Of a DNA stretch of 55,534 nucleotides, positions 22,316 through 50,626 are shown piece after piece. Numbering within the stretch: the first letter of the stretch is position 1; each line of letters starts with the position of its first letter. The position numbers and the translations under genes are program-made. The DNA comes from Alphaproteobacteria bacterium MarineAlpha5_Bin7 (GTDB taxonomy: Bacteria; Pseudomonadota; Alphaproteobacteria; HIMB59; GCA-002718135), in NCBI GenBank assembly GCA_002938195.1, contig PTKX01000006.1, forward strand, positions 1-55,534. Direction: 5' to 3'. Below the pieces are notes generated by a model, which had not been told where the DNA came from, made no database searches, and worked only from the letters and a program-made list of their open reading frames with translations.

Positions 22316-22326
22316 AGTAGGAAAAT

Positions 22327-27160: not shown

Positions 27161-27580
27161 GTGAAACATAATATTACTCATAAAAAATTAAATAGAACTT
27201 CATCCCATAGGAAGGCTCTTCTAATGAATTTATCAAATTCCTTATTAAAGCATGAACAAATTACTACTACACTTCCAAAAGCAAAAGAATTAAGACCTTT
27301 TGTTGAAAAGATTATCACATTAGGGAAAAGGGGTGACTTGCAATCCAGGAAAAAAGCAATATCTATATTAAAAAATTCAAAAAATATAAAAAAAATCTTT
27401 GATGTTTTTGCCAATAGATATAAAAATAGACTCGGCGGTTATACTAGGATAGTTAAAATTGGTAATCGTTTTGGAGATAATGCTCCTAAAGCTATTATAG
27501 AGTTTGTTGATAGAGACGAAAAAGCAAAAGGTAAAGATAGCGGACCAGTTATAAAGAAAAAAACTTCTGAAGAAGAGTAA
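27161..27580 (+). CDS. rplQ: 50S ribosomal protein L17
   Basis: [24 protein letters not shown]; GTG start. Confidence 0.97.
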
Positions 27581-32556: not shown

Positions 32557-34008
32557 TTAAATACCCGCCATTTGAATATACTTTATTTCTAAAAAATCAT
32601 CTATTCCGTATTTAGATCCTTCACGTCCAAGTCCAGATTCCTTAACTCCACCAAAAGGAATTTCTGCTTTGGAAGGAAGTCCTGTATTTACTGAGACTAT
32701 GCCATATTCTAATTCTTCTGCTACTTTCCATATTCTTCCGATATCTCTTGAATAAAAATAAGAAGCTAATCCATAAGGTGTATCATTTGCCATTTTTATT
32801 ACTTCTTCATCTTTCGAAAATTTATATACTGGAGCTACTGGACCAAAGGTTTCTTCATTTGTAATTTTTGATTTAATAGAAACATCTGACAAAATGGTTG
32901 GTAAGTAAAAGTTTCCACCAAGTTTATGAATTTCTCCACCGATAGCTATTTTTGCTCCCTTATTTACAGCATCTTGAACATGTTCTTTAACTTTTTCAAG
33001 AGAATATTCATCAATTAGTGGCCCAGAAACAATTCCTTCAGTAAAACCATCTCCAACTTCCATTTCTGACACAGCTTTAACAAATTTTTTTAAAAATTCA
33101 TCATATACTTTTTCATGAACAAATAATCTATTTGCACATACACAAGTTTGACCAGTATTTCTAAATTTACTTTGGATGGCCCCAGTTACAGCTTCATCTA
33201 TGTTAGCATCATCAAAAACTATAAAAGGAGCATGTCCACCAAGTTCCATTGAAACTTTTTTTACAGTACTTGAGCATTGTGATAATAAAACTTTTCCAAC
33301 TTCTGTTGAACCAGTAAAAGACAATTTTCTTACTATTGGATTATAAGACATTTCAGAACCAATTTCTTTAGCATCTCCTGTGATAATATTGATGACTCCT
33401 TTAGGGAAACCTGCTTCTTCGGCTAGAACACCTAGTGCTAAAGCAGAAAAAGGTGTTTGACTAGCAGGTTTGATTACTACGGGACATCCAACAGCTAGAG
33501 CAGGTGCACATTTTCTTGTAATCATGGAGCTCGGAAAATTCCAAGGAGTTATTGCAGCAACAATTCCAATAGGTTGTTTAAGCACAATTATTCTTCTATC
33601 CGAAAATCTATCTGGGATAGTGTCTCCATAAATTCTTTTTGCTTCTTCTGCAAACCATTCTACAAATGAGGCTCCATAGGAAATTTCAGCTCTGGATTCT
33701 GCTATAGGCTTACCTTGCTCGAAGGTCATAATTTTTGCTAAATCCTCTTTATTTTTTTCTATTAAATAAAACCACTTTTTAAGTAAAACAGATCTTTCTA
33801 ATGCAGTTTTGCCTTTCCAACCACTCCAAGCTTCATTAGCTTTAGAAATAGCAAATTTGGTTTCCTCTTTGCCACATTTCGGAACTTTACCAATAATTTT
33901 CAATGTGCTTGGATTATTAACTTCAATTATATCCTTATTATAGCTATTTATCCACTCGCCATTAATATAACATTTATCTTTTATAAGTGACTTATTTGAG
34001 ATATCCAT
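32557..34008 (-). CDS. gabD: NAD(P)-dependent succinate-semialdehyde dehydrogenase
   Basis: ITPWNFP, KPASQTP, FTGSTEVG, ELGG, GQTCVC, EETFGP, GREGSKYG. Confidence 0.9.
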   Translation of the reverse strand: MDISNKSLIKDKCYINGEWINSYNKDIIEVNNPSTLKIIGKVPKCGKEETKFAISKANEAWSGWKGKTALERSVLLKKWFYLIEKNKEDLAKIMTFEQGKPIAESRAEISYGASFVEWFAEEAKRIYGDTIPDRFSDRRIIVLKQPIGIVAAITPWNFPSSMITRKCAPALAVGCPVVIKPASQTPFSALALGVLAEEAGFPKGVINIITGDAKEIGSEMSYNPIVRKLSFTGSTEVGKVLLSQCSSTVKKVSMELGGHAPFIVFDDANIDEAVTGAIQSKFRNTGQTCVCANRLFVHEKVYDEFLKKFVKAVSEMEVGDGFTEGIVSGPLIDEYSLEKVKEHVQDAVNKGAKIAIGGEIHKLGGNFYLPTILSDVSIKSKITNEETFGPVAPVYKFSKDEEVIKMANDTPYGLASYFYSRDIGRIWKVAEELEYGIVSVNTGLPSKAEIPFGGVKESGLGREGSKYGIDDFLEIKYIQMAGI

Positions 34009-34097: not shown

Positions 34098-35204
34098 ATG
34101 AAAATAGTAAATTCTTGGAATGAATGGGATCCTCTAAAGCACGTAATTGTTGGTAAAGCTGATAATTGTTGCATACCTCCTCCTGAACCAGCTACTGATC
34201 CTAAAATTCCAAAGGATAGCGATATGAAAGGAATGCATGGACCGCGTCCACATGATACTGTTGATAAAGCAAATGAACAGCTTGATGGTTTAGCAAATAT
34301 ATTAAAAAAAAGAGGTATTAAGGTAGATAGACCAACACCTCTAGATTTTAATCAAAAAATTGCTACCCCTGATTGGGAAATTGGCTCAATGTTTGGGTGT
34401 ATGCCTCCACGCGATGTAATATTAACTTTAGGCAATGAAATGTTAGAGGCAACAATGTCTTATCGCTCAAGGTGGTTTGAATATTTGTGCTATCGTCCTT
34501 TACTCCAAAAATATTTTGATGAAGATCCTGAAATGAAATGGGAGTCAGCTCCAAAACCAAGATTAACAGAAAAATCTTACAGAACAAACTATCTTAATGA
34601 AGGTATTTCTGACGAACAAAGATTAGAAATGGTCAAAAGAAAAGAATTTGTAACAACAGAAGAAGAACCTTTATTTGATGCAGCTGATATTTTGAGAATG
34701 GGTAAGGATCTATTTATACAAAATGGTTTTACAACAAACCTTAAGGGTGCAAATTGGATACAAAGACATTTTAAAAGTCACCGGGTTCATATTTTAAATT
34801 TTCCTGGAGATATGTATCCAATTCATATTGATGCAACATTTACACCTATTAAACCAGGATTAATTATCAATAATGCGAGCAGACAATTACCTGAAGATCA
34901 GAAAAAAATATTTTATGACAATGATTGGGAAATAGTAGATGCAGCTCAACCAGCTCATAATGAACCACCACCTCTTTGTTATTCTAGTGTTTGGTTGAGC
35001 ATGAATGTGTTGGTAATAGATCCAAAAACAGTGTGTGTTGAGGCTAGTGAAGTTTATCAGTCTGAACAATTGGATAAATTAGGAATGGAAGTTATTCCTG
35101 TGCCATTTAGAGATGCATATCCATTTGGTGGAGCTCTGCATTGCGCTACTACCGATGTTTATAGAGATGGTAAATGTGAAGATTATTTTCCGAATCAATC
35201 ATGA
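34098..35204 (+). CDS. Amidinotransferase (AGAT-like, pentein fold)
   Basis: NSWNEWDPLKHVIVG, PRD, FDAAD (D194), PIHIDATF (H243), GGALHC (C349): intact Asp-His-Cys triad. Confidence 0.88.
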   Translation: MKIVNSWNEWDPLKHVIVGKADNCCIPPPEPATDPKIPKDSDMKGMHGPRPHDTVDKANEQLDGLANILKKRGIKVDRPTPLDFNQKIATPDWEIGSMFGCMPPRDVILTLGNEMLEATMSYRSRWFEYLCYRPLLQKYFDEDPEMKWESAPKPRLTEKSYRTNYLNEGISDEQRLEMVKRKEFVTTEEEPLFDAADILRMGKDLFIQNGFTTNLKGANWIQRHFKSHRVHILNFPGDMYPIHIDATFTPIKPGLIINNASRQLPEDQKKIFYDNDWEIVDAAQPAHNEPPPLCYSSVWLSMNVLVIDPKTVCVEASEVYQSEQLDKLGMEVIPVPFRDAYPFGGALHCATTDVYRDGKCEDYFPNQS

Positions 35205-35950
35205 ATAATTTTATTCAAAAAGATTTATCTCCTACTTTTAACGAAATAGTTAACCCAAGAATTGGCGTTATAACTCTTTCAACAGATTTTACTATAGAAC
35301 AAGATTTTAGAAAGGTATGTCATGGTATTGATTTAGATATCTTCTTTAATAGAATACCTTTTAACAACCCATTAAATCATGAAAATTATCTAAAGATGGC
35401 TGAACATATTCCAGAGATAACAGAACAAATATTACCTAAACAAAAAGTGGATGTAATAGCATATGGCTGTACTTCAGGAACAATTGCAATTGGAGAAGAG
35501 TTTATAACAAGTCAGATACATAAAAAAAAACCAGGTGCCTTGGTTACTACGCCGATAACTGCTGCATTAAAAGCATTTAAAAAATTAAATTTAAAAAAAA
35601 TTGCTGTTTTGACACCTTATCCTACAAACGTCAATTTAACTGTCTTTAATTATTTGGAGCAAAACAATTTAGAAGTAGATTCATTTAATTCTTTTAATTT
35701 GAATTATGACTCAGAAATTGCAAAAGTAAGTCCTGCAAGTCTTTTGGATGGTATTGATAAAATCAATCTAGAAAATGTTGATGGTCTGTTTGTTTCGTGT
35801 ACAGCTCTCAAAATATTAGAAATACTTGAAAAAGTTGAACAAAAATTCAATACTACAGTCATCTCTAGCAACCAGGCAATAATATGGGATTGTTTAAGAC
35901 TTTCAAATATCAATAACAAAATAAATGGTTATGGTAAATTGTTTCAATAA
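35201..35950 (+). CDS. eutA: EutA-like Asp/Glu racemase / maleate isomerase family protein
   Basis: RIGVITLSTD..IEQDF, YGCTSG, LTPY, FVSCTAL, SSNQA; adjacent to eutB and eutC. Confidence 0.8.
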   Translation: MNNFIQKDLSPTFNEIVNPRIGVITLSTDFTIEQDFRKVCHGIDLDIFFNRIPFNNPLNHENYLKMAEHIPEITEQILPKQKVDVIAYGCTSGTIAIGEEFITSQIHKKKPGALVTTPITAALKAFKKLNLKKIAVLTPYPTNVNLTVFNYLEQNNLEVDSFNSFNLNYDSEIAKVSPASLLDGIDKINLENVDGLFVSCTALKILEILEKVEQKFNTTVISSNQAIIWDCLRLSNINNKINGYGKLFQ

Positions 35951-35961
35951 AATTTAATATA

Positions 35962-36912
35962 ATGATCTCATTGGATAGAATTAAAGAAGCGCACAAAAAA
36001 ATTATACCTTATATCAATCATACTCCATTGATACATTCTGATTTTTTGTCTCAAAATAGAAATGTTAGATTAAAATTAGAATCACTTCAAAAAACTGGAT
36101 CTTTTAAATTACGGGGAGCATTAAATAAATTATTATCACTTTCAGATGAACAAAAAGATCGGGGGGTTATAGCTGTTTCTACAGGAAATCATGGTAAAGG
36201 TGTGGCCTATGCTTCCAGTTTATTGGGAATTAAATCCACTATATACATGTCATCTATGGTTCCAAAATATAGGAAAGAGGCAATTCAAGCTTTGGGAGCC
36301 AATGTTGAGATTGTAGGAAAAAATAGTGATGAAGCTGATTTATATGCAAAAAAAATATCTATAAAAGAAAATATTAAACTTATACATCCTTTTGATGATG
36401 AAGATATAATTGCAGGACAGGGAACAATAGGTTTAGAAATGATTAAAGATTTTCCTGATGTAGACACTGTAATTATACCTACATCTGGCGGAGGTTTGAT
36501 AGGAGGAATTGCTTTGGCTTTAAAATTACAAAAACCTAATATTAAAGTTATTGGAGTCTCTATGAAAAGAGGGCCTTCTATGTATGAAAGTTTAAAACTT
36601 GGAAAACCTGTTGATGTTGAAGAATTAGAAACTTTGGCTGATTGTTTAGGAGGAAGTATAGGGCAAGATAACAAGTATACCTTTAATATTGTCAAAAAAA
36701 CAATAGATGATTTTGTTTTAGTTGATGAAGATAAAATAGCAGAGGGTATCAAGTTAAATTTCTTGGAACATAAATTAGTAACTGAAGGCGCAGCCGCAAC
36801 CAGCATTATGGCAGTAAAAGAGAATTTATCCACACATATAGGAGAAAATGTTATTTGTTTGATTTGCGGAGGTAATATTGAATCTAAATTATTTACAAAA
36901 TTAGTTTCATGA
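35962..36912 (+). CDS. eutB: EutB-like PLP dehydratase (threonine dehydratase family)
   Basis: GSFKLRGA (PLP Lys), STGNHG, SGGGL, TLADCLGG; no ACT domain. Confidence 0.82.
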   Translation: MISLDRIKEAHKKIIPYINHTPLIHSDFLSQNRNVRLKLESLQKTGSFKLRGALNKLLSLSDEQKDRGVIAVSTGNHGKGVAYASSLLGIKSTIYMSSMVPKYRKEAIQALGANVEIVGKNSDEADLYAKKISIKENIKLIHPFDDEDIIAGQGTIGLEMIKDFPDVDTVIIPTSGGGLIGGIALALKLQKPNIKVIGVSMKRGPSMYESLKLGKPVDVEELETLADCLGGSIGQDNKYTFNIVKKTIDDFVLVDEDKIAEGIKLNFLEHKLVTEGAAATSIMAVKENLSTHIGENVICLICGGNIESKLFTKLVS

Positions 36913-37889
36913 CAGTTATTTTAAGTTTAGATGAAATCAAAAAATGTATAGGTTTGGATAAACAACTTATACCTATAATTGAAGAGGCATTTAAAAATTT
37001 AGCTCAGGATAAAGTATCTATGCCACCTATTTTACGCCTTGATATAGAAGAATATCATGGGGAGTCTGATGTAAAGGCTGCATATATTCAAGGTTTGGAC
37101 AGTTATGCTATAAAAGTAGCATCTGGTTTTTTTAACAATCCAAAAATTGGCCTTCCTTCTAGCAATGGATTAATGATTTTATTAGACTCAAAAACTGGCG
37201 TTATAAAATCAATTTTATTGGATAAGGGATACTTGACTGATATTCGTACAGCAATCGCTGGAGCCATAGCAGCAAAATATTTATCAAATCCTGATTCTAA
37301 AAAAGTAGGAATAATAGGGGCGGGAATACAGGCTAAATTACAACTTGAAGCATTATCTTTAGTTAGAAATATAGATACAGCATTTATATGGGCAAGAAAA
37401 AAAGATAAGGTTTCTGAATTTATAGCAGATATTAAGAAGCTAAATATAAATATTCAAGCATGTCTTTTACCAGAAGAAGTAGTAAATCAATGTGAAATTC
37501 TTGTTACAACAACGCCCAGCAAATCTCCTTTAATAAAAAATGAATGGTTAAAGAAAGGTCTGCACATAACAGCAATGGGTTCTGATGCTGAACAAAAGAA
37601 TGAATTAGATCCTCTTATCATTAAGGATTGTGATCTCTATATTCCTGATAGTTTGTCTCAAACAAAAATATTAGGTGAATTAAATCATGCAATAAAAAAT
37701 AATCTTGTTTCGTCTAATCAGAATTATAATGAACTTGGAGAAGTTATTCTTGATCCTAGCTTAGGAAGAAAAAGAAAAGAAGATATAACTGTATGTGACT
37801 TGACTGGTACTGGAGTTCAAGATACTGCTATAGCAAGACAAACATATGAAATAGCTATGCATTTAAAATTAGGAACAAGTGTTGATTAA
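36909..37889 (+). CDS. eutC: EutC-like cyclodeaminase (ornithine cyclodeaminase/mu-crystallin family)
   Basis: MPPILRLDI, GFFNNPKIGLPS, LTDIRTA, GAGIQA, DLTGTGVQD. Confidence 0.88.
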   Translation: MTVILSLDEIKKCIGLDKQLIPIIEEAFKNLAQDKVSMPPILRLDIEEYHGESDVKAAYIQGLDSYAIKVASGFFNNPKIGLPSSNGLMILLDSKTGVIKSILLDKGYLTDIRTAIAGAIAAKYLSNPDSKKVGIIGAGIQAKLQLEALSLVRNIDTAFIWARKKDKVSEFIADIKKLNINIQACLLPEEVVNQCEILVTTTPSKSPLIKNEWLKKGLHITAMGSDAEQKNELDPLIIKDCDLYIPDSLSQTKILGELNHAIKNNLVSSNQNYNELGEVILDPSLGRKRKEDITVCDLTGTGVQDTAIARQTYEIAMHLKLGTSVD

Positions 37890-37892
37890 GTT

Positions 37893-39335
37893 ATGAATGA
37901 ATCAATTATTAATAAAACATCTGAATATTTTAAAAAAAATGGTGTAGTTTTGCCTACTATCTCAGAACTTTGCGAACCTCATTCAATAAATGAAGAAATA
38001 AAAAATAAACTAAAATCCGTCAATAAGAATGAAATCAATCCTTTAAATTTATTTAGAGTACATTGGTATAATAATTTAAATCATTCAGGTTTTTCAAAAG
38101 TACCTGAACATATTGTGCTACCAAGTGAATTTACTGGAGTGGAAGCAAAGATAATTATTAATATTGGAAGATTATTTCCATTAATAACTGCACATAAAGT
38201 GCTTGCAGCTTATGGATGTTTATTACCAAGAATTTTAAATGGTACATTTGATTATGAAAATCATAAAGCTGTTTGGCCCTCAACTGGTAATTATTGTAGA
38301 GGAGGAGTCGCTATTTCAAGGATACTTGGATTTAAAAGTGTTGCAATTTTACCTGAAGGAATGAGTAGAGAACGTTTTAACTGGTTAGAAAAATGGGTTG
38401 AGGATAAAAATGATATAATTAAAACAGCTGGCACAGAAAGTAATGTTAAGGAAATATATGATGCTTGCAACCAATTACAAAAAGACTCAAAAAATGATAT
38501 TATAAATCAATTTGATGAATATTATAATTATGCTATTCATCGTGCAGTAACAGGACCTTCTTTTGAAAAATCTTTTTTAGAAGTAAAAGGTGACTCAAAT
38601 TTAAAACCAAGATTTTATGTTAGCGCCTCAGGATCAAGTGGAACACTTGCAGCTGGAGATTATTTAAAAGATAGACTAAATACTAAAATTGCTGTTGTTG
38701 AGGCAAAAGAATGTCCAACTTTGCTTTACAATGGCTATGGAGAACATAATATTCAAGGCATTGGTGACAAACACGTCCCATTAATTCATAATGTAATGAA
38801 TACTGATTTTGTTGTAGGCGTTTCTGATCAAGCCACAAATAATCTCAATATGATTTTTAACACAGATGAAGGTCAAAAATTTTTAATATCAAAAAAAGGT
38901 TTTGATATTAAATTTATTAACAGATTACCAGAATTTGGTTTCTCAGCTATTGCGAACATACTTGCTTCTATTAAATTAGCAAAATATATGAAATTAGGAC
39001 CTGATGATGCAATAATTACTGTAGCAACTGATGGTGCTGATTTATATTTTTCTGAATTAGAAAAAACAAAAAAAGAATTCCAAGGTATTTATGATGAAAT
39101 TGCATGCTCAGAAATATACGGTCAATATCTTAATGGCATTGCAATTGATGATACTTTAGAGCTTAATCAAAAAGACAAAGAAAGAATCTTCAATCTTGGA
39201 TACTATACTTGGGTAGAGCAACAAGGAGTAGATATTAATGATTTTGAAAAAAGAAGAAATATAAATTTTTGGAATGAACACTATAATTATATGCTTTCTC
39301 TTGATAATCAAATTAAAGAATTTAATAGTATTTAA
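37893..39335 (+). CDS. Uncharacterised PLP-dependent enzyme, fold type II
   Basis: AHKV (Schiff-base Lys), PSTGNY, SGSSGT phosphate loop, HNIQGIG; long N- and C-terminal extensions. Confidence 0.8.
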   Translation: MNESIINKTSEYFKKNGVVLPTISELCEPHSINEEIKNKLKSVNKNEINPLNLFRVHWYNNLNHSGFSKVPEHIVLPSEFTGVEAKIIINIGRLFPLITAHKVLAAYGCLLPRILNGTFDYENHKAVWPSTGNYCRGGVAISRILGFKSVAILPEGMSRERFNWLEKWVEDKNDIIKTAGTESNVKEIYDACNQLQKDSKNDIINQFDEYYNYAIHRAVTGPSFEKSFLEVKGDSNLKPRFYVSASGSSGTLAAGDYLKDRLNTKIAVVEAKECPTLLYNGYGEHNIQGIGDKHVPLIHNVMNTDFVVGVSDQATNNLNMIFNTDEGQKFLISKKGFDIKFINRLPEFGFSAIANILASIKLAKYMKLGPDDAIITVATDGADLYFSELEKTKKEFQGIYDEIACSEIYGQYLNGIAIDDTLELNQKDKERIFNLGYYTWVEQQGVDINDFEKRRNINFWNEHYNYMLSLDNQIKEFNSI

Positions 39336-39340
39336 CTTAA

Positions 39341-40495
39341 ATGAAGACAAAGAGTTTACATAATAAATTAGTAGAGTGGAGACATGATTTACACATGAAT
39401 CCACAAATAAGTTTTGAAGAAGAATATGCTTCGAATAAAGTAGCAAACTTATTAAAAGAATTTGGAATTGTGGTACATCCAGGTATAGCAAAAACTGGAG
39501 TAGTTGGAGTTTTAAAGAAAGGTAAAGGTAATAAGAGTATTGGCATTAGGGCAGATATAGACGCTTTACCAATTAATGAGAAAAATACATTTTCTTATAA
39601 ATCAAAAATTGAAAACAGAATGCATGCTTGTGGTCATGATGGACATACGACAATGTTACTTGGCGCTGCAAAATATTTAGCAGAGAATAGTAATTTTGAT
39701 GGAACTATTTATTTTATTTTTCAACCAGATGAAGAAAATTGTTTTGGCGCTAAAACAATGATTGAGGAAGGTTTATTCAGTAATTTTTCAATAGATGAAG
39801 TATATGCGATGCACAATATTCCAAATATGGAGTTAGGTTCATTTGGCACGCGTAAAGGAGCAATAACTGCTAGCGAAAATTTATTTGAAATCAATATTCA
39901 AGCAAAGGGTGGTCATGCGGCTTTACCACACATGGGGGTCGATGCAATAACTGTTGGCTCGCAAGTAGCTATAGCATTACAATCAATAGTTTCAAGAAAA
40001 CTCAATCCTGCAGATAATGGCATTGTTTCTATTACTGAATTTATTACTGATGGAAAAAAAAATGTATTACCTGGCAAAGTAAAAATAACAGGAGATGCCC
40101 GAGCTTTATCAAAAACAACTAACGAGATGATCGAAAAAAATATGAAACAGATTGTTAAAGGTGTATGTGAAGCTCATGAAGTTTCTTATGATGTAACATA
40201 TAAAACTTCTTGTCCAATAACTTTAAATGATTCAGAGCAGGCAGAATCAGCGACAAAGGCAGCAAAATCTTTACTAGGAGAGAAAAAAACTAATGGAAAT
40301 ATTGAACCAAGATTATTTTCTGAAGATTTTTCCATAATGTCTGCTGAAAAACCTGGATGTTTTGTTTTGATGGGCAATGGAACAAAAGGCTCTAATGCAA
40401 AACCATTGCATGCAGCAGATTATGACTTTAATGATGAATTATTGGTAATAGGTTCCTCTTATTGGGTGGAATTGGCAGAACAACAATTAAAATAA
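39341..40495 (+). CDS. M20D aminoacylase/hippurate hydrolase-like amidohydrolase
   Basis: RADIDALPI, MHACGHDGH, QPDEE, GGHAA.PH, SEDF, LH. Confidence 0.92.
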   Translation: MKTKSLHNKLVEWRHDLHMNPQISFEEEYASNKVANLLKEFGIVVHPGIAKTGVVGVLKKGKGNKSIGIRADIDALPINEKNTFSYKSKIENRMHACGHDGHTTMLLGAAKYLAENSNFDGTIYFIFQPDEENCFGAKTMIEEGLFSNFSIDEVYAMHNIPNMELGSFGTRKGAITASENLFEINIQAKGGHAALPHMGVDAITVGSQVAIALQSIVSRKLNPADNGIVSITEFITDGKKNVLPGKVKITGDARALSKTTNEMIEKNMKQIVKGVCEAHEVSYDVTYKTSCPITLNDSEQAESATKAAKSLLGEKKTNGNIEPRLFSEDFSIMSAEKPGCFVLMGNGTKGSNAKPLHAADYDFNDELLVIGSSYWVELAEQQLK

Positions 40496-40516
40496 TATTA
40501 TTATAAGAGAAATTTA

Positions 40517-41665
40517 ATGTTTAAGAAAAATTTACTTAAATTACAAAATAGTATGAAAGAAAATAACATTGACCTCGCAATAATAACAGATGATGATTCT
40601 TTATATTATTTTACTGGATATTATAATTTTCTTCACATGGATTTTTTTCGTCCCACAATATTACTTGTTCCTAAAGATGATGAAAGCACTTTAATTACCC
40701 CTTTATTAGACGTTCTTTTAATAGAAAAGGATTGTCCGATTAAAAAAATTAAAACTTGGAATGATGGCATAGGCAATGAATGGAGAGAATATTTGCCTAA
40801 ATTTATAAAAGAAAACAAAAAAATAGCATGTGAAAAATTTAAGATTAACGCTACTGTTAGTAATTATTTAAACGATTTACTTAGTGGCAAAGATTTAAAA
40901 GATATAACGCCTATAATAAGCAATATTCGAATGATAAAATCTGAAGAGGAGTTAAAAATTGCAAGACATGCAGGTGAGGTAGCTTTGGCTATGATGGAGG
41001 GTGGCAAAAAGGCTTTAGGTCATAATGTACCTGAGTATGAAGTTGCTATCGCAACATCTCAAGCTGGAACTAGAAAAGCTGCAGAACTTTTGGAAAAACA
41101 TTATGATAATAAGACTATGTCTCCTAATATTCATTTTTTGCAAGTTATGTCTTCAGGCCATGATTTACCAAAAACTCATCATCGTGCTTCAACAAAATTA
41201 ATTAAAAAAGGAGACCCAGTATTTCTTTGCTTTTGCGGATCTACAAATTTTCATAGATTTAAATTGGGATTTGATCGTGTTTTTTGGATCGAAGAAGTTA
41301 GAGAAGACTCGCAAATAAAAGCATTCGAAGTCGCTGTAAAATCTCAAAAAGCAGCACTTAGTGTACTTCGACCAGGAATAACCGCAGAAGAAGTGCATGA
41401 AGCTTATGCAGAGACTATACAAGAAGAAGGTTATCCTTATCCAACTTTTCGCTGTGGCCGTGCTACAGGTTTTAGTGTTTTAGAAGAGCCACAATTGATT
41501 GTTGGAAATAAAACTATATTGCAGCCAGGAATGGTTTTTGCAGTAGATGGAGGAGCAAGTACCGATAATTTTAGAGCTCAAGTTGGAGATAGTTTTATTA
41601 TTACAGAAAATGGTTATGAACAAATTACTCATCATTCCAAAGAGATTAAAGATTTAATTGTTTGA
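40517..41665 (+). CDS. M24-fold (creatinase/prolidase-like) hydrolase with degenerate metal site
   Basis: Creatinase N domain (YYFTGY), RMIKSEEEL, LRPG, LQPGMVF, ITENGYEQIT. Confidence 0.82.
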   Translation: MFKKNLLKLQNSMKENNIDLAIITDDDSLYYFTGYYNFLHMDFFRPTILLVPKDDESTLITPLLDVLLIEKDCPIKKIKTWNDGIGNEWREYLPKFIKENKKIACEKFKINATVSNYLNDLLSGKDLKDITPIISNIRMIKSEEELKIARHAGEVALAMMEGGKKALGHNVPEYEVAIATSQAGTRKAAELLEKHYDNKTMSPNIHFLQVMSSGHDLPKTHHRASTKLIKKGDPVFLCFCGSTNFHRFKLGFDRVFWIEEVREDSQIKAFEVAVKSQKAALSVLRPGITAEEVHEAYAETIQEEGYPYPTFRCGRATGFSVLEEPQLIVGNKTILQPGMVFAVDGGASTDNFRAQVGDSFIITENGYEQITHHSKEIKDLIV

Positions 41666-41668
41666 TTA

Positions 41669-42694
41669 ATGCAAAATATAAAAGTTTATAACGCACATTG
41701 TTGTGGTGAAATCGGTGATGTTGTCATAGGAATGGAAAATTTTGATTTTAAATCACCAAAAGAAGGGTCGGCACATTTATTCAAAGATAAATCTTGGAGA
41801 AATTTTTTTTTAAATGAACCTAGAGGCGGAGTATTTAAACATTGTAATATAATTGTAAAACCTTCAGATCCAGATGCTGATGCGGGATTTATTATTTTAG
41901 AGCCCGAAGATAACCCTCCTATGAGTGGTTCAAACACTATATGTGTCACAACCGTTTTGCTTGAAAAAAAAATATTAAAAATGCAATATCCTTTTACTTC
42001 ATTAACTCTTGAGGTTCCAGGGGGATTGATTAAAGTTATTGCAGAATGTGAAAATAACAAAGTAAAGAATGTTTCTTTGACTAATTTACCTTCTTTCGTT
42101 GATAAAGTTGATGTTACTCTTAAAACTTCAAATTATGGCAACATAATTGTTAGTACCGCTTATGGAGGCGATAGCTTTTTGCTATGCGAAGCAAGAGATT
42201 TTAATTTGGAAATAGAACCAAAAAATGCTAAAAATTTTGTAAATATTGCTGATGAACTATTAAATGAAGCTAATAAACAAATTGGATTTCAACACCCTAG
42301 TATTTCAGAATTAAATTATATTTCTTTTTGTCAATTTATGGATCCATTAAAAATTGACAATCAAGGAAATAAAAATGCAAAAAATACCGTTGTCATAAGA
42401 CCAGGCAAATTAGACAGGTCGCCTTGTGGCACAGGAACATCAGCAAGATTAGCATTGCTAAGAAATAAAAATGAAATTAAAATTGGAGAAAAAATAATAT
42501 CTCAATCAATTATTGGATCTACTTTTGAAGCATTTATTGAAGATGAAATTATTGAATCGTTAAGTGCTATGATCAAACCTAACATTAAAGGTAGTGCTTA
42601 TATAACCGGAGAACAAATTCTCTATAAAAATGACGATGATCCCTTTCCAGAAGGATACAAAATAAATGATACATGGCCAGATAGTCACAAATAA
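41669..42694 (+). CDS. Proline racemase superfamily protein, Ser-Cys type
   Basis: HCCGE, NEPRGG, MSGSN (S86), AYGG, DRSPCGTG (C253). Confidence 0.9.
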   Translation: MQNIKVYNAHCCGEIGDVVIGMENFDFKSPKEGSAHLFKDKSWRNFFLNEPRGGVFKHCNIIVKPSDPDADAGFIILEPEDNPPMSGSNTICVTTVLLEKKILKMQYPFTSLTLEVPGGLIKVIAECENNKVKNVSLTNLPSFVDKVDVTLKTSNYGNIIVSTAYGGDSFLLCEARDFNLEIEPKNAKNFVNIADELLNEANKQIGFQHPSISELNYISFCQFMDPLKIDNQGNKNAKNTVVIRPGKLDRSPCGTGTSARLALLRNKNEIKIGEKIISQSIIGSTFEAFIEDEIIESLSAMIKPNIKGSAYITGEQILYKNDDDPFPEGYKINDTWPDSHK

Positions 42695-42741
42695 ATATTG
42701 TTATATTTGCTTATTTTTTTGAATAAATATAGAAGAAGGTT

Positions 42742-44007
42742 ATGACAAGATTTAATGCCTGGAATGTAATTAAAAATGGATTAAATGACCAAACTGGTTG
42801 GGATAGGCAATGGAGAGATCCAGAACCCAAAAAAGAGTATGAGATTGTCATTGTAGGCGGTGGCATACATGGTTTAGCAACTTCTTATTATCTAGCAAAA
42901 AACTTCAATATTAAAAATATTGCAGTTCTTGAAAAAGGTTGGATAGGAGGTGGCAATGCAGGAAGAAACACAACTATTATACGATCTAATTATATGATGC
43001 CAGGTAGTCATCAATTTTATGAGCATTCATTAAAGTTATGGGAAAACTTGAGTCATGATTTAAATTATAATGTAATGTTTAGCCAAAGAGCGCATGTATC
43101 ACTTTTTCATAGCCCTCCTGCTAGAGATGTTGCCGCAAGAAGATATAACATTATGAAACTTCATGGCACTGATGCAGAACTATGGGATATTAATAAGCTG
43201 AAAAAAAATATACCATATTTAAATTATCATAATGCAAGATTCCCAATACTAGGAGCAGCAGTTCAAAATAGAGCTGGAAATGCTAGACATGACGCAGTTG
43301 TTTGGGGATATGCAAGGGCAGCAGATCAATTAGGAGTAGATATTCTTCAAAACTGCGAAGTGACTAACATTTTAAGAACAAATAGCAATATAGATGGATT
43401 AGAAACAACAAGAGGAATTATAAAAGCTAAAAAAATTGGCTTTGCTGTTGCAGGTAACACATCAAGACTCTGGGAAATGACGGGTCTTGGAAATCTCCCA
43501 ATTGAGTCTCATAAACTACAAGCATTTGTTACTGAGTCAATTAAGCCATTAATAGATCAAGTTATCGTATATGGAGTTGGCGGCGCACATTTTTATATAT
43601 CACAATCTGATAAGGGTAGTTTAGTTTTTGGAGGTGATCTTGATTGGTACAAATCTTATGCACAAAGAGGTAATTTACCAATAGTTCAAGATTGTGCAGA
43701 GGCAGCAATGGCAATTCTTCCTTGTTTAGGAAGGATTAGAATAGTCAGGCATTGGGCTGGTGTATGTGACATGTCTATGGACGGAACTTTTTTTATTTGC
43801 AATACTCCTATAAAGAATTTGTTTTTAAATGCTGGCTGGAACTACGGTGGATTCAAGGCTGGTCCAGCTTCTGGATGGTATTTTGCAGATTTAATTGCTA
43901 ATGAACAACCTAATCAAATCATCAAAAATCATAATCTAGAACGTTTTGAAAAAGGTATTAACTTAGATGAGCGAGGAGCTGGACCTGATCCTAAATTACA
44001 TGGATAA
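42742..44007 (+). CDS. soxB: Heterotetrameric sarcosine oxidase family, beta subunit
   Basis: IVGGGIHG FAD motif, GRNTTIIRSNY, ARHDAV, GW.YGGFK. Confidence 0.92.
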   Translation: MTRFNAWNVIKNGLNDQTGWDRQWRDPEPKKEYEIVIVGGGIHGLATSYYLAKNFNIKNIAVLEKGWIGGGNAGRNTTIIRSNYMMPGSHQFYEHSLKLWENLSHDLNYNVMFSQRAHVSLFHSPPARDVAARRYNIMKLHGTDAELWDINKLKKNIPYLNYHNARFPILGAAVQNRAGNARHDAVVWGYARAADQLGVDILQNCEVTNILRTNSNIDGLETTRGIIKAKKIGFAVAGNTSRLWEMTGLGNLPIESHKLQAFVTESIKPLIDQVIVYGVGGAHFYISQSDKGSLVFGGDLDWYKSYAQRGNLPIVQDCAEAAMAILPCLGRIRIVRHWAGVCDMSMDGTFFICNTPIKNLFLNAGWNYGGFKAGPASGWYFADLIANEQPNQIIKNHNLERFEKGINLDERGAGPDPKLHG

Positions 44008-44013
44008 TATAAT

Positions 44014-44304
44014 ATGATTAGAATTAAATGTCCTTATTGTGGAGAAAGAGATCATAGCGAATTTACCTATGGAAGTGACGCATCTATAGAATATCCAAAT
44101 CTAGAATCCAATGCAAAAGATTGGACTGAAGCTATTTTTTTTAGAAAAAATATTTATGGCAAACAAATAGAGACATGGCATCATACTAATGGTTGCAGAT
44201 TATGGTTAATCATTGAAAGATGTACAATAACTCATAAAATTTTTTCTATTAAACCTGCCCATCCAGAAATACACAAATTACTTAAAAATCAAAATAATAT
44301 ATGA
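44014..44304 (+). CDS. soxD: Sarcosine oxidase family, delta subunit
   Basis: CPYCGER...EF and WHHTNGCRLW Zn ligands. Confidence 0.92.
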   Translation: MIRIKCPYCGERDHSEFTYGSDASIEYPNLESNAKDWTEAIFFRKNIYGKQIETWHHTNGCRLWLIIERCTITHKIFSIKPAHPEIHKLLKNQNNI

Positions 44305-47279
44305 CTGCAAAAAGATTAAAAGATTACGGAAAAGTTAATCAAGATAAAATATTATCATTTACTTGGGAAAATAAAAAATATTTTGGTTACAAGGGCGATA
44401 GTTTGGCAGCATCTCTTTTAGCAAATAATATCAATATAATTGGAAGAAGTTTTAAATACCATCGTCCTAGAGGAATAATGTCTGCAGGAGTTGAAGAATC
44501 TGGAGCTCTGGTTACCATAGGTAAAAATGAATATACTGATCCAAATGTTAGGGCTACTTCTCAAGAGTTATATGAAGGTTTGATAGCATCGGGTCAAAAT
44601 GCATTTCCAAATGTTAATTTTGATCTTGGTTATATTAATAACTATCTAAGCCGTTTTTTTGCTGCGGGTTTTTACTATAAAACTTTTATGGGCTTACCAC
44701 CTTTTGAGTGGGGTAAAGGAACTAAGATTTGGATGATCTATGAAAAATTGATTAGAAAAGCAGCAGGGATGGGTAAAGCTTCTAAAATGCCAGATCCTGA
44801 CAAGTATGAGCACGCTAATGAATTTTGTGACGTACTTATTATTGGTTCAGGACCATCTGGAATAGCAGCAGCCGTTGAAGCGGCAAACAACAATCTAGAT
44901 GTTATACTTGTGGAACAAGATCATGTTATAGGAGGGAACTTACTTTCAAATTCAAACTTTGATTTTGAAGAAAAAAAATATTTTTTGCAAAAAGCTGGAA
45001 TTAAAGTGATGACGAGAACTACGGCTTTTGGTTTATATGATAATTGCGTAGCAGGTATGATCGAGAGAGTTAATGATCACTTTTTTTTACCAAAAAATAA
45101 TACTCCAAGACAGAGATTTTGGACAATTCGTTCAAAGCATATAATTTTAAGTACAGGTTCTTTGGAAAGACATATTGCTTTTAATAATAATGACATACCT
45201 GGAGTAATGACTGTTAATGCAGCTAGACATTATTTAAATAGATATGGAGTATTAGCAGGAGAAAAAATTATTATCTGTACCAATAATGATTCTGTATTTG
45301 AAACTTCGATATTATTATCTAAAGCTGGAGCTAAAGTAAAAGTATTTGATATTAGAGAAAAGATTGATGAAAACACAATAAAAAAACTTAATACCAACAA
45401 TGTTGAAATAGAGTTTAACAAAGCTCCATTAAACATTCAAGGAAACAAAAAAGTTGAAAGTATCGATATAGGAATAAAAGTGGGCAATAAATACAAAAAA
45501 GTTAACGAAGAAGAATGTGACTTGGTATTAATATCAGGAGGCTGGTCTCCGGTTATTCATCTTTTATCACATAGGGGTATAAAACCTAAATGGGATAAAG
45601 AAAATCTTTGCTTCTTACCTAGCCAATCTTCAGAACCTATAACAGTTGCAGGCTCCGCTGCAGGTATATGGAATAATGATGATTGTGAAGCTTCAGGTAT
45701 TGCCTCAGGATTAAAAGCGGCAAATGAAATTGGAATTAAAACCTCTGATTATTTTTTTCCTAAACAAGGAGGTTGGAAAAATCCTATATTTCCACTATTT
45801 GAAATAAAATCAAATCGATCAAGATCAAAAAGTTTTATAGATTTTCAGCATGACGTAACATCAGATGATATCAGGTTAGCCCATAGAGAAGGTTTTGTGT
45901 CAGTAGAGCACCTAAAAAGATATACAACTTTAGGAATGGCTAACGATCAAGGTAAAATGGGGAATATAATTGGATTATCAATAATGGCAGATTTATTACA
46001 GAAAGAAATTTCCGAAGTGGGTACCACGGTATTTAGACCACCTTATACACCTATATCAATTGGAGCGTTAGCAGGGAGAAATGTAAATAAACATTTCAGG
46101 CCATTAAGGGTTACACCATTGCATGATTGGAATTTAGAAAATGGTGCTAAAATGATAGAGACCGGGTTATATCAAAGACCTTGGTATTATCCAAAAAATA
46201 ATGAAAAATTGGCAGATGCGTATATTAGAGAGGCAAGCTCAGTAAGAAAAACAGTTGGATTATGCGATGTTACTTCTTTGGGGAAAATTTCAATACAAGG
46301 CCCTGATTCTACTATTTTTTTGAATAAGGTTTATAGCAATGCCTTTGCTAAGCTACCTATAAACAAAGCAAGATATGGTATTATGCTAAGAGATGATGGA
46401 TTGGTGATGGACGATGGAACTTCTTGGAGACTTTCTGAGAATGAATATTTTATGACTACATCTACAGCTCATGCTGCAAAGGTTATGTTATGGTTAGAGG
46501 AGTTATTACAAACTCGATGGCAAAACTTAAAAGTTCATGTAACTTCTGTTTCTGAAGAATGGGCGGCTGTATCAATTGCTGGACCAAAATCAAGAGATAC
46601 TCTTTCTTTGTGTGTTGAAGATCCTAATTTAATATCTAATGATAATTTGCCTTTTATGGGATTAACTCAAACTAAATTAAACAATGGTATACCTTGCAGA
46701 ATAGCTAGAATTAGTTTTTCAGGTGAGTTAGCTTTTGAAATTTATACCCCTTCTGATTTTGCATATAATATGATGAATATTCTTTGGGAAAGTGCAAAAA
46801 AATTTGATGGGTGTTTATATGGATTAGAAGCTTTGGGAGCACTAAGAATTGAAAAAGGTCATGTTACTGGAGCAGAATTAGACGGAAGAGTTACTATAGA
46901 GGATGTAGAATTGGGTAAAATGGCTTCTGATAAAAAATCATATATTGGCAGTGCAATGCAAAAAAGAGGAGTGTTAGCAGATAAAGATAGAGAAACTTTA
47001 GTGGGTATTTTTCCAAGAAATAAATCACAAACCTTTGATGCAGGAACTATTATTTGTAAAAAAAATGAAATTAAAGGATATGGAATAGGCAGAATTACTT
47101 CTGTAACTTATTCACCTGGATTAGGTCATTGGATTGGATTGGGATTCATAAAAGGCGGTTATACTGAGTGGAAAAACACAATTGTCGTTGGAGCAGATCC
47201 TGTTAGAAATAAGGAAATTGATTTAGAAATTGTTTCTCCTCACATGTTTGATCCCAAGGGGGAGAGATTACATGGTTGA
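44301..47279 (+). CDS. soxA: Sarcosine oxidase family, alpha subunit
   Basis: GDSLAASLLAN, RSFKYHRPRG, IGSGPSG, EHLKRYTTLGMANDQG, GcvT-like C-terminal domain. Confidence 0.94.
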   Translation: MTAKRLKDYGKVNQDKILSFTWENKKYFGYKGDSLAASLLANNINIIGRSFKYHRPRGIMSAGVEESGALVTIGKNEYTDPNVRATSQELYEGLIASGQNAFPNVNFDLGYINNYLSRFFAAGFYYKTFMGLPPFEWGKGTKIWMIYEKLIRKAAGMGKASKMPDPDKYEHANEFCDVLIIGSGPSGIAAAVEAANNNLDVILVEQDHVIGGNLLSNSNFDFEEKKYFLQKAGIKVMTRTTAFGLYDNCVAGMIERVNDHFFLPKNNTPRQRFWTIRSKHIILSTGSLERHIAFNNNDIPGVMTVNAARHYLNRYGVLAGEKIIICTNNDSVFETSILLSKAGAKVKVFDIREKIDENTIKKLNTNNVEIEFNKAPLNIQGNKKVESIDIGIKVGNKYKKVNEEECDLVLISGGWSPVIHLLSHRGIKPKWDKENLCFLPSQSSEPITVAGSAAGIWNNDDCEASGIASGLKAANEIGIKTSDYFFPKQGGWKNPIFPLFEIKSNRSRSKSFIDFQHDVTSDDIRLAHREGFVSVEHLKRYTTLGMANDQGKMGNIIGLSIMADLLQKEISEVGTTVFRPPYTPISIGALAGRNVNKHFRPLRVTPLHDWNLENGAKMIETGLYQRPWYYPKNNEKLADAYIREASSVRKTVGLCDVTSLGKISIQGPDSTIFLNKVYSNAFAKLPINKARYGIMLRDDGLVMDDGTSWRLSENEYFMTTSTAHAAKVMLWLEELLQTRWQNLKVHVTSVSEEWAAVSIAGPKSRDTLSLCVEDPNLISNDNLPFMGLTQTKLNNGIPCRIARISFSGELAFEIYTPSDFAYNMMNILWESAKKFDGCLYGLEALGALRIEKGHVTGAELDGRVTIEDVELGKMASDKKSYIGSAMQKRGVLADKDRETLVGIFPRNKSQTFDAGTIICKKNEIKGYGIGRITSVTYSPGLGHWIGLGFIKGGYTEWKNTIVVGADPVRNKEIDLEIVSPHMFDPKGERLHG

Positions 47280-47832
47280 CAGAACTTCAGCTTTAGATAA
47301 AAATTATGAAATTGTTAAAAAAATCAATGATGAAAAAGTTAATCTTATATTTAACAGAAATATTAATTTACAGATTACACAAGTGGCAGCATGGCCCGAT
47401 ACAGTTTCAAAAGTTGAATTAATTATATCAAAATATTTAAAAATATTATCATTACCTAGATCAAATTTCGCTGAAGATAATGATTCTTTTGCTATAATGA
47501 GAGTAGAACCTCTTAAATGGTGGATTCTTGGTTCTGATATTCCTTTATTATCGACTGAAGAGGGAACTACATTAGATTTATCTCATTCATTCACGAATAT
47601 TCAAATATCTGGACCAAGTGCCAAATTATTTTTGAATAGGTTTTTACCTCTAGATTTAAGAGACAATTCATTTCCAATCAACAAAGTGGCCTCTTCAGCT
47701 ATACATCATGTTAGTGTAAAATTATGGCTTTCAAGAAATGGCTTTCAATTATTTATACCACGAGGCTATGCAATGTCATTGTGGGAAATTTTTCAAGAAT
47801 CAGCAACTCAATTTGGATATGAAATAAAGTAA
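47272..47832 (+). CDS. soxG: Sarcosine oxidase family, gamma subunit (start moved to ATG 47272)
   Basis: DLSHS, PLDL, F.P..VA, IPRGYA.SLW; SD GGAGAG; follows soxA. Confidence 0.85.
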   Translation: MVDRTSALDKNYEIVKKINDEKVNLIFNRNINLQITQVAAWPDTVSKVELIISKYLKILSLPRSNFAEDNDSFAIMRVEPLKWWILGSDIPLLSTEEGTTLDLSHSFTNIQISGPSAKLFLNRFLPLDLRDNSFPINKVASSAIHHVSVKLWLSRNGFQLFIPRGYAMSLWEIFQESATQFGYEIK

Positions 47833-47929
47833 CATTGCTGTTTAGCTTGTTACTTTTTTACGCAAACTAAATCGTATTATTTTCTAGCTATTTGGTGATT
47901 ATTTGTCTAGAGAACTTATCAATTTTTTT

Positions 47930-50620: not shown

Positions 50621-50626
50621 TGTTAA

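Follow-up and report, generated by a model that had tools for sequence, protein, structure and literature searches.

The 55,534-nucleotide stretch analysed here (the window; contig PTKX01000006.1 of Alphaproteobacteria bacterium MarineAlpha5_Bin7, assembly GCA_002938195.1, forward strand) carries a gene island that appears to be a mosaic of modules for nitrogen-rich zwitterionic osmolytes, and not a self-contained seven-gene operon. A preliminary description of this DNA had joined an amidinotransferase gene, eutABC, a gene for a pyridoxal phosphate (PLP) enzyme and genes for an M20 and an M24 hydrolase into an alternative route for (hydroxy)ectoine or a related amidine. Independent support for such a route comes from orthologues of the M24 and M20 genes that occur elsewhere with an Ehu-type importer, an AsnC regulator and EutA-like genes, but the unit proves to be M20-M24-Sox, and an ectoine-type substrate for it is putative. 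The reading favoured here, held tentatively and at slightly less than an even chance, is that the M24 and M20 enzymes are non-orthologous stand-ins for the ring opening and deacylation of (hydroxy)ectoine or an analogue, with EutB and EutC handling the hydroxylated diamino acid.

The island consists of 15 co-directional genes on the + strand that span about 16 kb (34098-49918), and the seven genes described earlier are its left half. These were found as described: seven co-oriented open reading frames (ORFs) with overlaps or gaps of 21 bp or less (measured as -4, 11, -4, 3, 5 and 21 bp), with a gabD/SSADH-type aldehyde dehydrogenase gene divergent upstream, and profile and PDB searches bear out all seven family guesses. 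Eight additional genes lie 3' of the M24 gene, the listed families being proline racemase, soxB, soxD, soxA, soxG, GcvT/DmdA-like and EamA. The features are as follows.

32557-34008, - strand: gabD, Ssd-like NAD(P)-dependent semialdehyde dehydrogenase (Pfam Aldedh; TIGR01780 SSADH, 705 bits, cut-off 646)
34098-35204, + strand: GATM/AGAT-like amidinotransferase (PDB 1jdw/1jdx, E 2e-85 to 3e-85)
35201-35950, + strand: EutA-like protein, Asp/Glu-racemase/arylmalonate-decarboxylase superfamily (TIGR02990, 212 bits, below the cut-off of 318)
35962-36912, + strand: EutB-like PLP dehydratase, threonine-dehydratase family (NF005680, 384 bits, cut-off 413)
36909-37889, + strand: EutC-like NAD(P) enzyme, ornithine-cyclodeaminase/mu-crystallin family (NF006141, 456 bits, above 408; TIGR02992, 424 bits, below 472)
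37893-39335, + strand: 480-aa fold-II PLP enzyme, cysteine-synthase fold with N- and C-terminal helical extensions (Pfam PALP, 35.6 bits)
39341-40495, + strand: M20D amidohydrolase, aminoacylase/hippurate-hydrolase type (TIGR01891, 327 bits, above 154)
40517-41665, + strand: metal-free M24 hydrolase of uncharacterised type, pattern C-G-R-D-G (Pfam Peptidase_M24 and Creatinase_N)
41669-42694, + strand: proline-racemase-family protein, nearest to trans-3-hydroxy-L-proline dehydratase (NF047722, 409 bits, cut-off 550)
42742-44007, + strand: SoxB-family subunit, sarcosine-oxidase-like paralogue (TIGR01373, 598 bits, above 529; PDB 2gag_B, 400 bits)
44014-44304, + strand: SoxD-family subunit (Pfam SoxD; TIGR01374, 90 bits, cut-off 116.5)
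44301-47279, + strand: SoxA-family subunit with folate-binding GCV_T domain (TIGR01372, 1146 bits, cut-off 1164; Pfam GCV_T and SO_alpha_A3)
47230-47832, + strand: SoxG-family subunit, listed start TTG (TIGR01375, 53 bits, cut-off 144)
47903-49051, + strand: GcvT-family aminomethyltransferase, DmdA-like (NF009133, 393 bits, cut-off 410)
49052-49918, + strand: EamA-family transporter, final gene of the array (Pfam EamA; TIGR00950, 92 bits)
49919-52288, - strand: DUF3726 protein (233 aa) and a 553-aa protein without Pfam or NCBIfam match, the right-hand anchor of the variable island

As the boundary of an operon, the right border of the seven genes is arbitrary: the next gene begins 3 bp past 41665 and the co-directional array runs on to 49918. 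Close packing does not mark out an operon here, because gaps of 21 bp or less also separate 37 of the 45 same-strand neighbour pairs outside the seven genes (median 3 bp), and spacing was rejected as an argument for one. Consensus promoter and terminator scans of the window gave matches at shuffle level and were uninformative on transcription units.

Does the gene order recur in relatives? An alignment-based amidinotransferase scan, with one genome per species, gave 80 loci, mostly from Pelagibacteraceae; in 56 of them the sequence extends 8 kb or more downstream of the gene. None of the 80 has eutB, eutC, the PLP enzyme, this M20, the proline-racemase-family gene, soxB, DoeB (the canonical deacetylase) or Atf (the diaminobutyrate (DAB) aminotransferase) within reach, and the lone sox-type match is a 29% soxA-like sequence 9 kb upstream (L014). 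As an anchor for conserved linkage, the amidinotransferase thus gave the opposite result, with 0/80 loci linked to eutBC, PLP, M20 or sox, and the seven genes are not a conserved unit.

The amidinotransferase is, by full-length homology and a predicted Cys-His-Asp triad, an AGAT-family protein. Residues 4-364 match PDB L-arginine:glycine amidinotransferase, and D194, H243 and C349, which we take by their offset to match Asp254, His303 and Cys407, are invariant in an alignment of 12 sequences. Its sequence identity stays above 70% across Pelagibacteraceae, Desulfobacterales and Hyphomicrobiales. Its usual partner is a true creatinase, which adjoins it in 24 of the 80 loci, mostly immediately upstream (L012, L018, L026, L028, L033, L036, L039, L040, L041, L047, L048, L051, L055, L058, L062, L064, L065, L069, L070, L072, L073, L074, L079 and L080; it lies further upstream in L070 and downstream in L062). 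The creatinase of L018 reaches 533 bits (E 5e-159) to the Pseudomonas putida creatinase 1chm. No description of a creatinase-amidinotransferase pairing was found in the literature on this enzyme in SAR11. The place in an ectoine route that had been given to the amidinotransferase is thus not borne out: by the partner counts, its neighbourhood gathers amidine and guanidine hydrolases and is unlinked to eutBC, the PLP enzyme, M20 and this M24. Most likely, the amidinotransferase and the 3-hydroxyproline-dehydratase-like gene serve neighbouring pathways, for guanidino compounds and hydroxyproline respectively.

Other neighbours of the amidinotransferase are varied. One locus of the 80, from a Pelagibacteraceae single-amplified genome, has an EhuB-like/EhuCDA importer 2 kb downstream of it (L055, 11365-16160): after the creatinase-amidinotransferase pair come a PhyH/halogenase-like dioxygenase gene on the - strand, a 262-aa protein and EhuB-like, EhuC, EhuD and EhuA genes. 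In Pelagibacter HTCC8051 (L018, 11100-12152), a PLP enzyme of the beta-eliminating-lyase/threonine-aldolase type follows, the sole NCBIfam match of which is GntG, the guanitoxin pathway aldolase (70 bits versus a cut-off of 230). Amidinotransferases from outside the Pelagibacteraceae (about 75% identical) neighbour arginine/ornithine-type genes: amino-acid-kinase-family and ornithine-carbamoyltransferase-like genes in a Desulfobacterales metagenome-assembled genome (MAG), and, in an alphaproteobacterial MAG, an Asp/Glu racemase gene and an arginase-family fusion (L014, 11197-14900; L003, 6742-8913).

The nearest relative has other genes at this site. The best amidinotransferase match (87%) is in a MarineAlpha5 MAG (L001), which is syntenic on both sides, with flanking proteins 39-87% identical; its gabD is 73% identical, its DUF3726 protein 45% and its 553-aa protein 69%. 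The order there is gabD, then amidinotransferase, EutA-like, DoeA-like and DmdA genes. Between the EutA-like gene and the DUF3726 gene on the - strand, L001 holds only the DoeA-like M24 gene and a bona fide DmdA gene, whereas the same interval in the window holds eutB, eutC, the PLP enzyme, M20, M24, the proline-racemase-family gene, soxBDAG, the GcvT-like gene and EamA, the last without a counterpart in L001. As the flanks are conserved and the interior differs, the block 35962-49918 is a lineage-specific replacement. Base composition was tried as a mark of recent transfer of this block and gave no signal, GC being 0.30-0.33 throughout. Identity between the GcvT-like protein and the DmdA that L001 has at the corresponding position (536 bits) is only 40%; in view of this value and of its own score (393 bits, cut-off 410), the GcvT-like protein probably acts as a demethylase on some other methylated compound. 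MarineAlpha5_Bin9 has both the amidinotransferase and the PLP enzyme, and there are indirect signs that homologues of the PLP enzyme and M24 recur in common close relatives.

What, then, is the conserved unit? A search of plasmid proteins found M24 orthologues in Roseovarius pelagicus HL-MP18 (NZ_CP106737; 59% identity) and Aminobacter sp. SR38 (NZ_CP062115; 58%). In both clusters, genes for a DAP-ammonia-lyase-family PLP enzyme and an amidohydrolase are divergent and are followed by AsnC, EhuB-like (one or two), EhuC, EhuD, EhuA and LysR; past LysR lie M24, EutA-like, SoxB, SoxD, SoxA and SoxG, with a Rieske protein next in Roseovarius, where dimethylglycine-dehydrogenase-like (DMGDH-like) genes are also present. 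The EhuB-like binding proteins score 178-188 bits versus the EhuB cut-off of 190.9, EhuC, EhuD and EhuA are named from the record annotation and not from an NCBIfam scan, and there are two EutA-like paralogues. The clusters are annotated by family names only. They share with the window the orthologous M24, M20 and SoxB/D/A/G, a EutA-like gene and a fold-II PLP lyase; they differ in having an importer and regulators, and in the absence of eutB, eutC, the 480-aa PLP enzyme, the amidinotransferase and the proline-racemase-family gene. On the shared content, the conserved unit is M20-M24-SoxBDAG plus a EutA-like protein and a fold-II lyase. Since it includes SoxBDAG, the right edge of the seven-gene call cuts through it.

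The Sox genes had been left out of the preliminary description. The subunit order B-D-A-G and the GCV_T domain in SoxA are those of a heterotetrameric sarcosine oxidase; SoxB lies above its family cut-off, and SoxA, SoxD and SoxG lie below theirs, yet these models are their best matches. SoxB is 73% identical to its Roseovarius counterpart (72.6%) and 71% to that of Aminobacter (70.9%); with the Roseovarius proteins, SoxA shares 57% identity, SoxD 54% and SoxG 34%. SoxB matches occur in 1010 plasmid records, where identity passes 60% only in the two M24-linked clusters and stays below it in the others, and Aminobacter SR38 carries an additional, generic SoxB (59%) on another plasmid. By this distribution, the Sox is a dedicated paralogue that travels with this M24. 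A decayed Ehu-LysR-M24 remnant is present in Parasedimentitalea. A more distant M24 relative in Rhizobium binae (42%) is found with an Amdase-like gene, an amidase, an ABC importer and GlxA-SoxBDAG-FolD-PurU. The contexts of the 38-42% relatives differ (Sinorhizobium meliloti, Paraburkholderia and Rhodobacteraceae SC52, with amidase or nitrilase and other ABC/TRAP systems), and they lend weak backing to a theme of M24, racemase-like protein and amidase. No description was found in the literature of this gene set in SAR11-like bacteria, of the Roseovarius/Aminobacter cluster or of a third metal-free M24 class.

The M24 protein was described as metal-free, and this is supported by alignment: the positions that correspond to the ligands D, D, H, E, E of Pyrococcus prolidase are C238, G251, R315, D344 and G357, while a conserved His (H221) is kept. 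The ligand numbering is what we take to be that of the reference prolidase 1pv9. Four patterns at the five positions emerge from an alignment of eleven M24 proteins. The DoeA type, E-P-Y-M/I-S/T, is seen in Leisingera, Priestia and three of the scanned loci (L001, L057 and L062), and the creatinase type has N-A-Y-E-H. The M24 of L025 largely retains the ligands (D-D-H-E, then His at the fifth position). The window type, C-G-R-D-G, is shared by the Roseovarius and Aminobacter orthologues and is only 17-25% identical to the other types (20-25% for the DoeA and creatinase types). Assignment to DoeA_2 or to creatinase was rejected on scores and residue pattern. By residue pattern and identity, the window M24 is a third metal-free type, distinct from DoeA and creatinase, and probably a new functional class. 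A protein search with this M24 gave 5281 homologues at E<=0.001, and ESM Atlas look-ups of the M24 and PLP enzymes returned generic family names only.

A metal-free M24 protein with a Creatinase_N domain next to soxBDAG, and an AGAT-like gene in the same array, recall the pathway of creatinase and heterotetrameric sarcosine oxidase. Might the M24 be a creatinase in function, converting creatine to sarcosine and urea, with SoxBDAG converting sarcosine to glycine and the amidinotransferase active in the same guanidino metabolism? The M24 aligns with 1chm over its full length (72 bits), the M24-Sox adjacency is conserved, the amidinotransferase neighbours creatinase in Pelagibacteraceae, and creatinase feeding sarcosine oxidase is described as an established route in the accessible part of 10.1101/2020.12.31.424895. 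However, the true SAR11 creatinase has 533 bits to 1chm and the N-A-Y-E-H pattern, to which the C-G-R-D-G protein of the window is no orthologue, being 21-22% identical; the conserved partners M20, EutA-like protein and ammonia-lyase have no role in creatine breakdown; and the Sox is a special paralogue that stands beside a generic one in Aminobacter. As the residue pattern differs and true creatinases occur in the same lineage, the creatinase reading is weakened, and we regard it as very unlikely.

The favoured reading, that M24 and M20 stand in for the ectoine hydrolase and deacetylase, draws on what is known of ectoine clusters. The canonical order is ehu/ueh-eutABC-eutD-eutE-asnC-ssd-atf, according to the accessible part of PMC5924519, and it is confirmed by the Leisingera caerulea plasmid NZ_CP081073. 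Clusters of this kind, which also include enuR, have been described from R. pomeroyi and S. meliloti. As far as the partial text of PMC8739950 goes, EutD and EutE open and then deacetylate both ectoine and hydroxyectoine, and in Ruegeria pomeroyi EutABC is needed for hydroxyectoine use by reactions that are unknown, hydroxydiaminobutyrate being quickly turned into diaminobutyrate. In Halomonas elongata, deletion of eutB and eutC leaves growth on ectoine unimpaired, and DoeA is called creatinase-like (PMC3187862, in the part available). Two SAR11 papers (PMC6018831 and PMC10030771) deal, in their accessible parts, with ectoine transporters only.

The locus is tied to ectoine-type chemistry by three independent lines: the run eutA-eutB-eutC together with an Ssd-like dehydrogenase, DoeA-like genes at this site in relatives, and the association with an Ehu importer and AsnC. 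With regard to the first, EutB is 46% identical to the annotated EutB of both the Leisingera (canonical) and Priestia (Bacillota-type) clusters, and EutC is 46-47% identical to the Leisingera EutC and the Priestia cyclodeaminase. Both lie at or just under curated cut-offs, near misses of a kind that may be expected in an AT-rich genome, and the 4-bp overlap between eutB and eutC is similar to that in the canonical cluster. The gabD product shares 47.8% identity with the Ssd encoded in the Leisingera ectoine cluster and scores above the SSADH subfamily cut-off. The EutA-like protein is 37% identical to Leisingera EutA, 50-54% to the EutA-like proteins of L001, L057 and L062, and 31% to the Roseovarius paralogues. 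EutA-like proteins seem to be general partners of metal-free M24 proteins, being found with them in L001, L057 and L062, Roseovarius, Aminobacter, Rhizobium binae and Paraburkholderia, and in L025.

The second line comes from 3 of the 80 amidinotransferase loci, in which a EutA-like and then a DoeA-like gene lie downstream (L001, 11071-13019; L057, 11098-13017; L062, 12320-14241). These DoeA-like proteins score 458-486 bits with TIGR02993, where the Priestia DoeA has 531 and the cut-off is 613, and they are 44-49% identical to the Leisingera and Priestia DoeA, with which they share the pattern given above. Within 10 kb of the three pairs there is no DoeB, Atf, eutB or eutC. The third line is that of the plasmid clusters.

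The arrangement of the window resembles the canonical cluster in the order eutA-eutB-eutC, the overlap of eutB and eutC, the Ssd-like dehydrogenase, and a hydrolase and deacylase after eutABC; the M24/M20 pair follows eutABC at the usual place of eutD-eutE, though the 480-aa PLP gene intervenes. It differs in the absence of DoeA, DoeB, Atf/DoeD, EnuR, AsnC and a Ueh/Ehu transporter, in a hydrolase of another M24 type, in a deacylase of the M20 and not the aspartoacylase family, and in the added amidinotransferase, CysK-fold PLP enzyme, proline-racemase-family gene, SoxBDAG and GcvT-like gene. The statement that no eutD, eutE or DAB aminotransferase can be recognised was upheld by tblastn of the window with Leisingera and Priestia references, bar weak M24 matches. 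Leisingera DoeB had no match in the window nor in any of the 80 related loci, and Atf had none in the window.

Is there a precedent for an M20 deacylase in this setting? Bacillota clusters without eutE but with an M20 gene (abgB) have been proposed, in a survey that used EutD as its starting point (PMC13188858, as far as the text is accessible). A putative cluster of this type, on the Priestia megaterium plasmid pBMV_1, has the order pucR-eutB-pdxS-doeA-cyclodeaminase-PLP enzyme-M20-homoserine dehydrogenase-aldehyde dehydrogenase. It shares with the window eutB, a cyclodeaminase, a PLP enzyme, M20 in the place of eutE and an aldehyde dehydrogenase; it differs in keeping a DoeA-type hydrolase (TIGR02993, 531 bits), in its fold-I PLP enzyme (cystathionine gamma-synthase family) and in having no sox. 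The two M20 proteins are 33% identical. An M20-type deacetylase family for N-acetyl-DAB, DoeB2 (NF038260), is already in NCBIfam; together with DoeA_2 (NF038259) it is an accepted precedent for an N-acetyl-DAB deacetylase of the M20 fold, although the window proteins score far below the cut-offs. A literature search found no paper that mentions 'DoeB2'. The M20 of the window is 49-50% identical to the Roseovarius/Aminobacter amidohydrolase, has PDB matches to YxeP and ILR1-like proteins, and scores about the same against CpsA and TIGR01891 as against DoeB_2. The earlier view of M24 and M20 as analogues of eutD and eutE retains the positional pair after eutABC and the DoeB2 precedent; its weakness is that the two belong with the SoxBDAG paralogue.

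A route can be outlined along these lines, with every chemical step predicted from gene content, synteny, family membership and co-occurrence. An ectoine-type cyclic amidine or guanidine amino acid would be taken up, our best guess being 5-hydroxyectoine, ectoine or an N-methylated relative. The M24 enzyme would open or de-amidinate it, and M20 would strip the N-acyl or N-carbamoyl group left by this step. The hydroxylated diamino acid might then be handled, as in hydroxyectoine users, by EutB through beta-hydroxy elimination and by EutC through imine reduction or cyclodeamination, and the CysK-fold PLP enzyme could carry out a beta-elimination or beta-replacement on a beta-substituted alanine-type intermediate. 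The Ssd-like GabD would oxidise the semialdehyde. The dedicated Sox paralogue, perhaps with the GcvT-like protein, would move an N-methyl or N-alkyl group into the folate pool.

Several observations weigh against this route. The M24 protein is not DoeA (TIGR02993, 56.9 bits versus a cut-off of 613; 22% identity to Leisingera DoeA), not DoeA_2 (NF038259, 68 bits versus 575) and not a creatinase (1chm, 72 bits over full length versus 533 for the Pelagibacter creatinase). M20 likewise falls short of DoeB_2 (NF038260, 312.6 bits, cut-off 550, spanning model positions 7-376 of 378, E 3e-93) and the only subfamily to which it can be assigned is the broad TIGR01891 amidohydrolase one. The scanned ORFs of the window include neither an importer of the Ehu, Ueh or Tea type nor an EnuR or AsnC regulator, in a scan that left out the short ribosomal-protein ORFs at 14512-23303 and the ORFs 25330-25710, 25714-26103 and 27161-27580. 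The plasmid clusters lack eutB, eutC and the 480-aa PLP enzyme, and use a DAP-ammonia-lyase-type enzyme; outside the window and its close relatives, eutBC and the PLP enzyme are thus not seen linked to M20-M24-Sox. Co-transcription of the array is no more than possible, tight spacing being genome-wide. DoeA and DoeB could lie elsewhere in this genome. Both plasmid homologues of the PLP enzyme (2/2) occur in sulfonate-like contexts and not with ectoine genes. Finally, a folate-linked Sox has no role in the known (hydroxy)ectoine route and so points to an N-methylated or different substrate.

The PLP enzyme matches Pfam PALP barely over the gathering cut-off (35), and its best PDB sequence matches are cysteine synthases (58 bits). 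Its AlphaFold2 model (pLDDT 94.6) is matched best in Foldseek by CysK, beta-cyanoalanine synthase, CBS and SbnA (target TM about 0.8); this fold search gave only generic CysK/CBS/SbnA-type neighbours and no specific function. On the model, the scaffold is one for beta-replacement or beta-elimination and not an aminotransferase, so that the suggestion of a fold-II enzyme that handles the diamino acid loses ground: a cysteine-synthase-type fold would not be expected to transaminate DAB. Marine data are very rich in this family, with at least 8000 homologues at E<=0.001 (the listed matches being 81-100% identical) and 301 clusters of 50% identity at E<=1e-30. Only two plasmid homologues were found (49-52%), in Bosea vaviloviae (L081, 7163-19236) and Rhizobium sp. 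NXC24 (L082, 8750-11428). TauE/SafE sulfite exporters lie beside or near them in both, and the Bosea locus also has a thiamine pyrophosphate (TPP) enzyme, RidA and gamma-glutamyltransferase nearby. These contexts hint at an elimination from a beta-substituted alanine such as cysteate, or at a sulfonate role.

Could the seven genes still be a self-contained (hydroxy)ectoine operon, amidinotransferase included, in which the fold-II PLP enzyme replaces the DAB aminotransferase? Gene content and order, the positional analogy to eutABC-DE and the DoeB2 precedent for an M20 deacetylase would be in keeping with this. It is made improbable by the 80 amidinotransferase loci (0/80 with eutB, eutC, the PLP enzyme, M20 or sox, and creatinase as partner in 24), by the array going past 41665 with M24 and M20 co-varying with SoxBDAG, and by a CysK fold that is not a transaminase fold.

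A possible reading, though a doubtful one, is that independent modules merely abut: eutABC as a hydroxyectoine accessory that uses doeA and doeB elsewhere, M20-M24-SoxBDAG for an unrelated N-methylated compound that yields an N-alkyl amino acid, and the PLP enzyme as a beta-lyase for sulfonated or other beta-substituted alanines. This would accord with spacing of 21 bp or less being the norm (37/45 outside pairs), with an island that is a replaceable insert relative to L001, with plasmid M24-Sox clusters without eutB and eutC, and with PLP-enzyme homologues near TauE/SafE, RidA and a TPP enzyme; the Sox paralogue, Rieske and DMGDH-like genes of Roseovarius point to N-demethylation, and the R. 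binae relative lies with GlxA-SoxBDAG-FolD-PurU. It leaves aside that a hydrolase/deacylase pair follows eutA-eutB-eutC where canonical clusters have eutD-eutE, that orthologues of M24 and M20 are linked elsewhere to EhuB-like/EhuCDA importers and AsnC, and that relatives have a DoeA-like gene at the locus.

Between an ectoine route and unrelated modules, the coupling to Sox and the Roseovarius Rieske and DMGDH-like genes suggest that the true substrate is an N-methylated relative of ectoine, or an unrelated N-methyl compound. More speculatively, and with a probability that we set low, the C-G-R-D-G M24, M20, fold-II PLP lyase, EutA-like protein, SoxBDAG paralogue and EhuB-like importer might constitute an undescribed pathway for an ectoine-like zwitterion, e.g. 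an N-methylated cyclic amidine or guanidine, in streamlined marine Alphaproteobacteria, roseobacters and rhizobia. With creatinase and ectoine hydrolase as the first two, the M24 would then open a third functional class among metal-free M24 enzymes.

The proline-racemase-family gene, 3 bp after the M24 gene, allows yet another construction. Its product matches PDB 4k8l (337 bits) and 4k7g, '3-hydroxyproline dehydratase' (315 bits), and carries the motifs MSGSN and DRSPCGTG, the Ser and Cys of which are presumably the catalytic pair. In a hydroxyproline or N-alkyl-proline route, Sox would demethylate or oxidise an N-alkyl (hydroxy)proline, the racemase-family protein would convert trans-3-hydroxy-L-proline to pyrroline-2-carboxylate, 'EutC' would reduce this to proline, and M24 would act, prolidase-like, on a bond of the X-(hydroxy)proline type. 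Two points also count for this route: N-alkyl amino acids are what the M24 fold specialises in, as in prolidase and creatinase, and the ornithine-cyclodeaminase family includes pyrroline-2-carboxylate reductases (EutC with NF004793, 158 bits). But EutC is far nearer to the EutC/cyclodeaminase models (424-456 bits) than to pyrroline-2-carboxylate reductases (68-158 bits), M24 is without the metal ligands for peptide hydrolysis, and the proline-racemase-family gene is absent from the Roseovarius/Aminobacter clusters, with a EutA-like gene in its place. Based as it is on one gene that the plasmid clusters lack, the reading is weaker for it, and its probability seems minimal. The creatinase and hydroxyproline readings both rank below that of independent modules.

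Seawater holds labile carbon and nitrogen currencies in the form of ectoines, creatine and related nitrogen-rich zwitterions, and their consumption by the most abundant streamlined bacteria is poorly mapped. If M20-M24-Sox acts on ectoines or a close analogue, as the stand-in reading holds, surveys with EutD/EutE markers would overlook some of the consumers, a very abundant marine lineage included. The substrate and EutA-type chemistry can be probed in two culturable hosts, Roseovarius pelagicus and Aminobacter sp. SR38.

The remainder of the window is that of a streamlined marine alphaproteobacterium close to the MarineAlpha5 MAGs, with GC of about 31% across its whole length. The first 28 kb hold nusG, rplKAJL, rpoBC, rpsLG, fusA, ribosomal-protein operons, secY, adk and rpoA, and are followed by CrcB, an RluA-type pseudouridine synthase, LipB (- strand), MgtE, BioY and a ROK kinase. 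Beyond the gene of the 553-aa protein lie an M19 membrane dipeptidase gene and then a second EamA gene. Within the island, the listed TTG start of soxG overlaps soxA by 50 bp, and the true start is for this reason probably further downstream.

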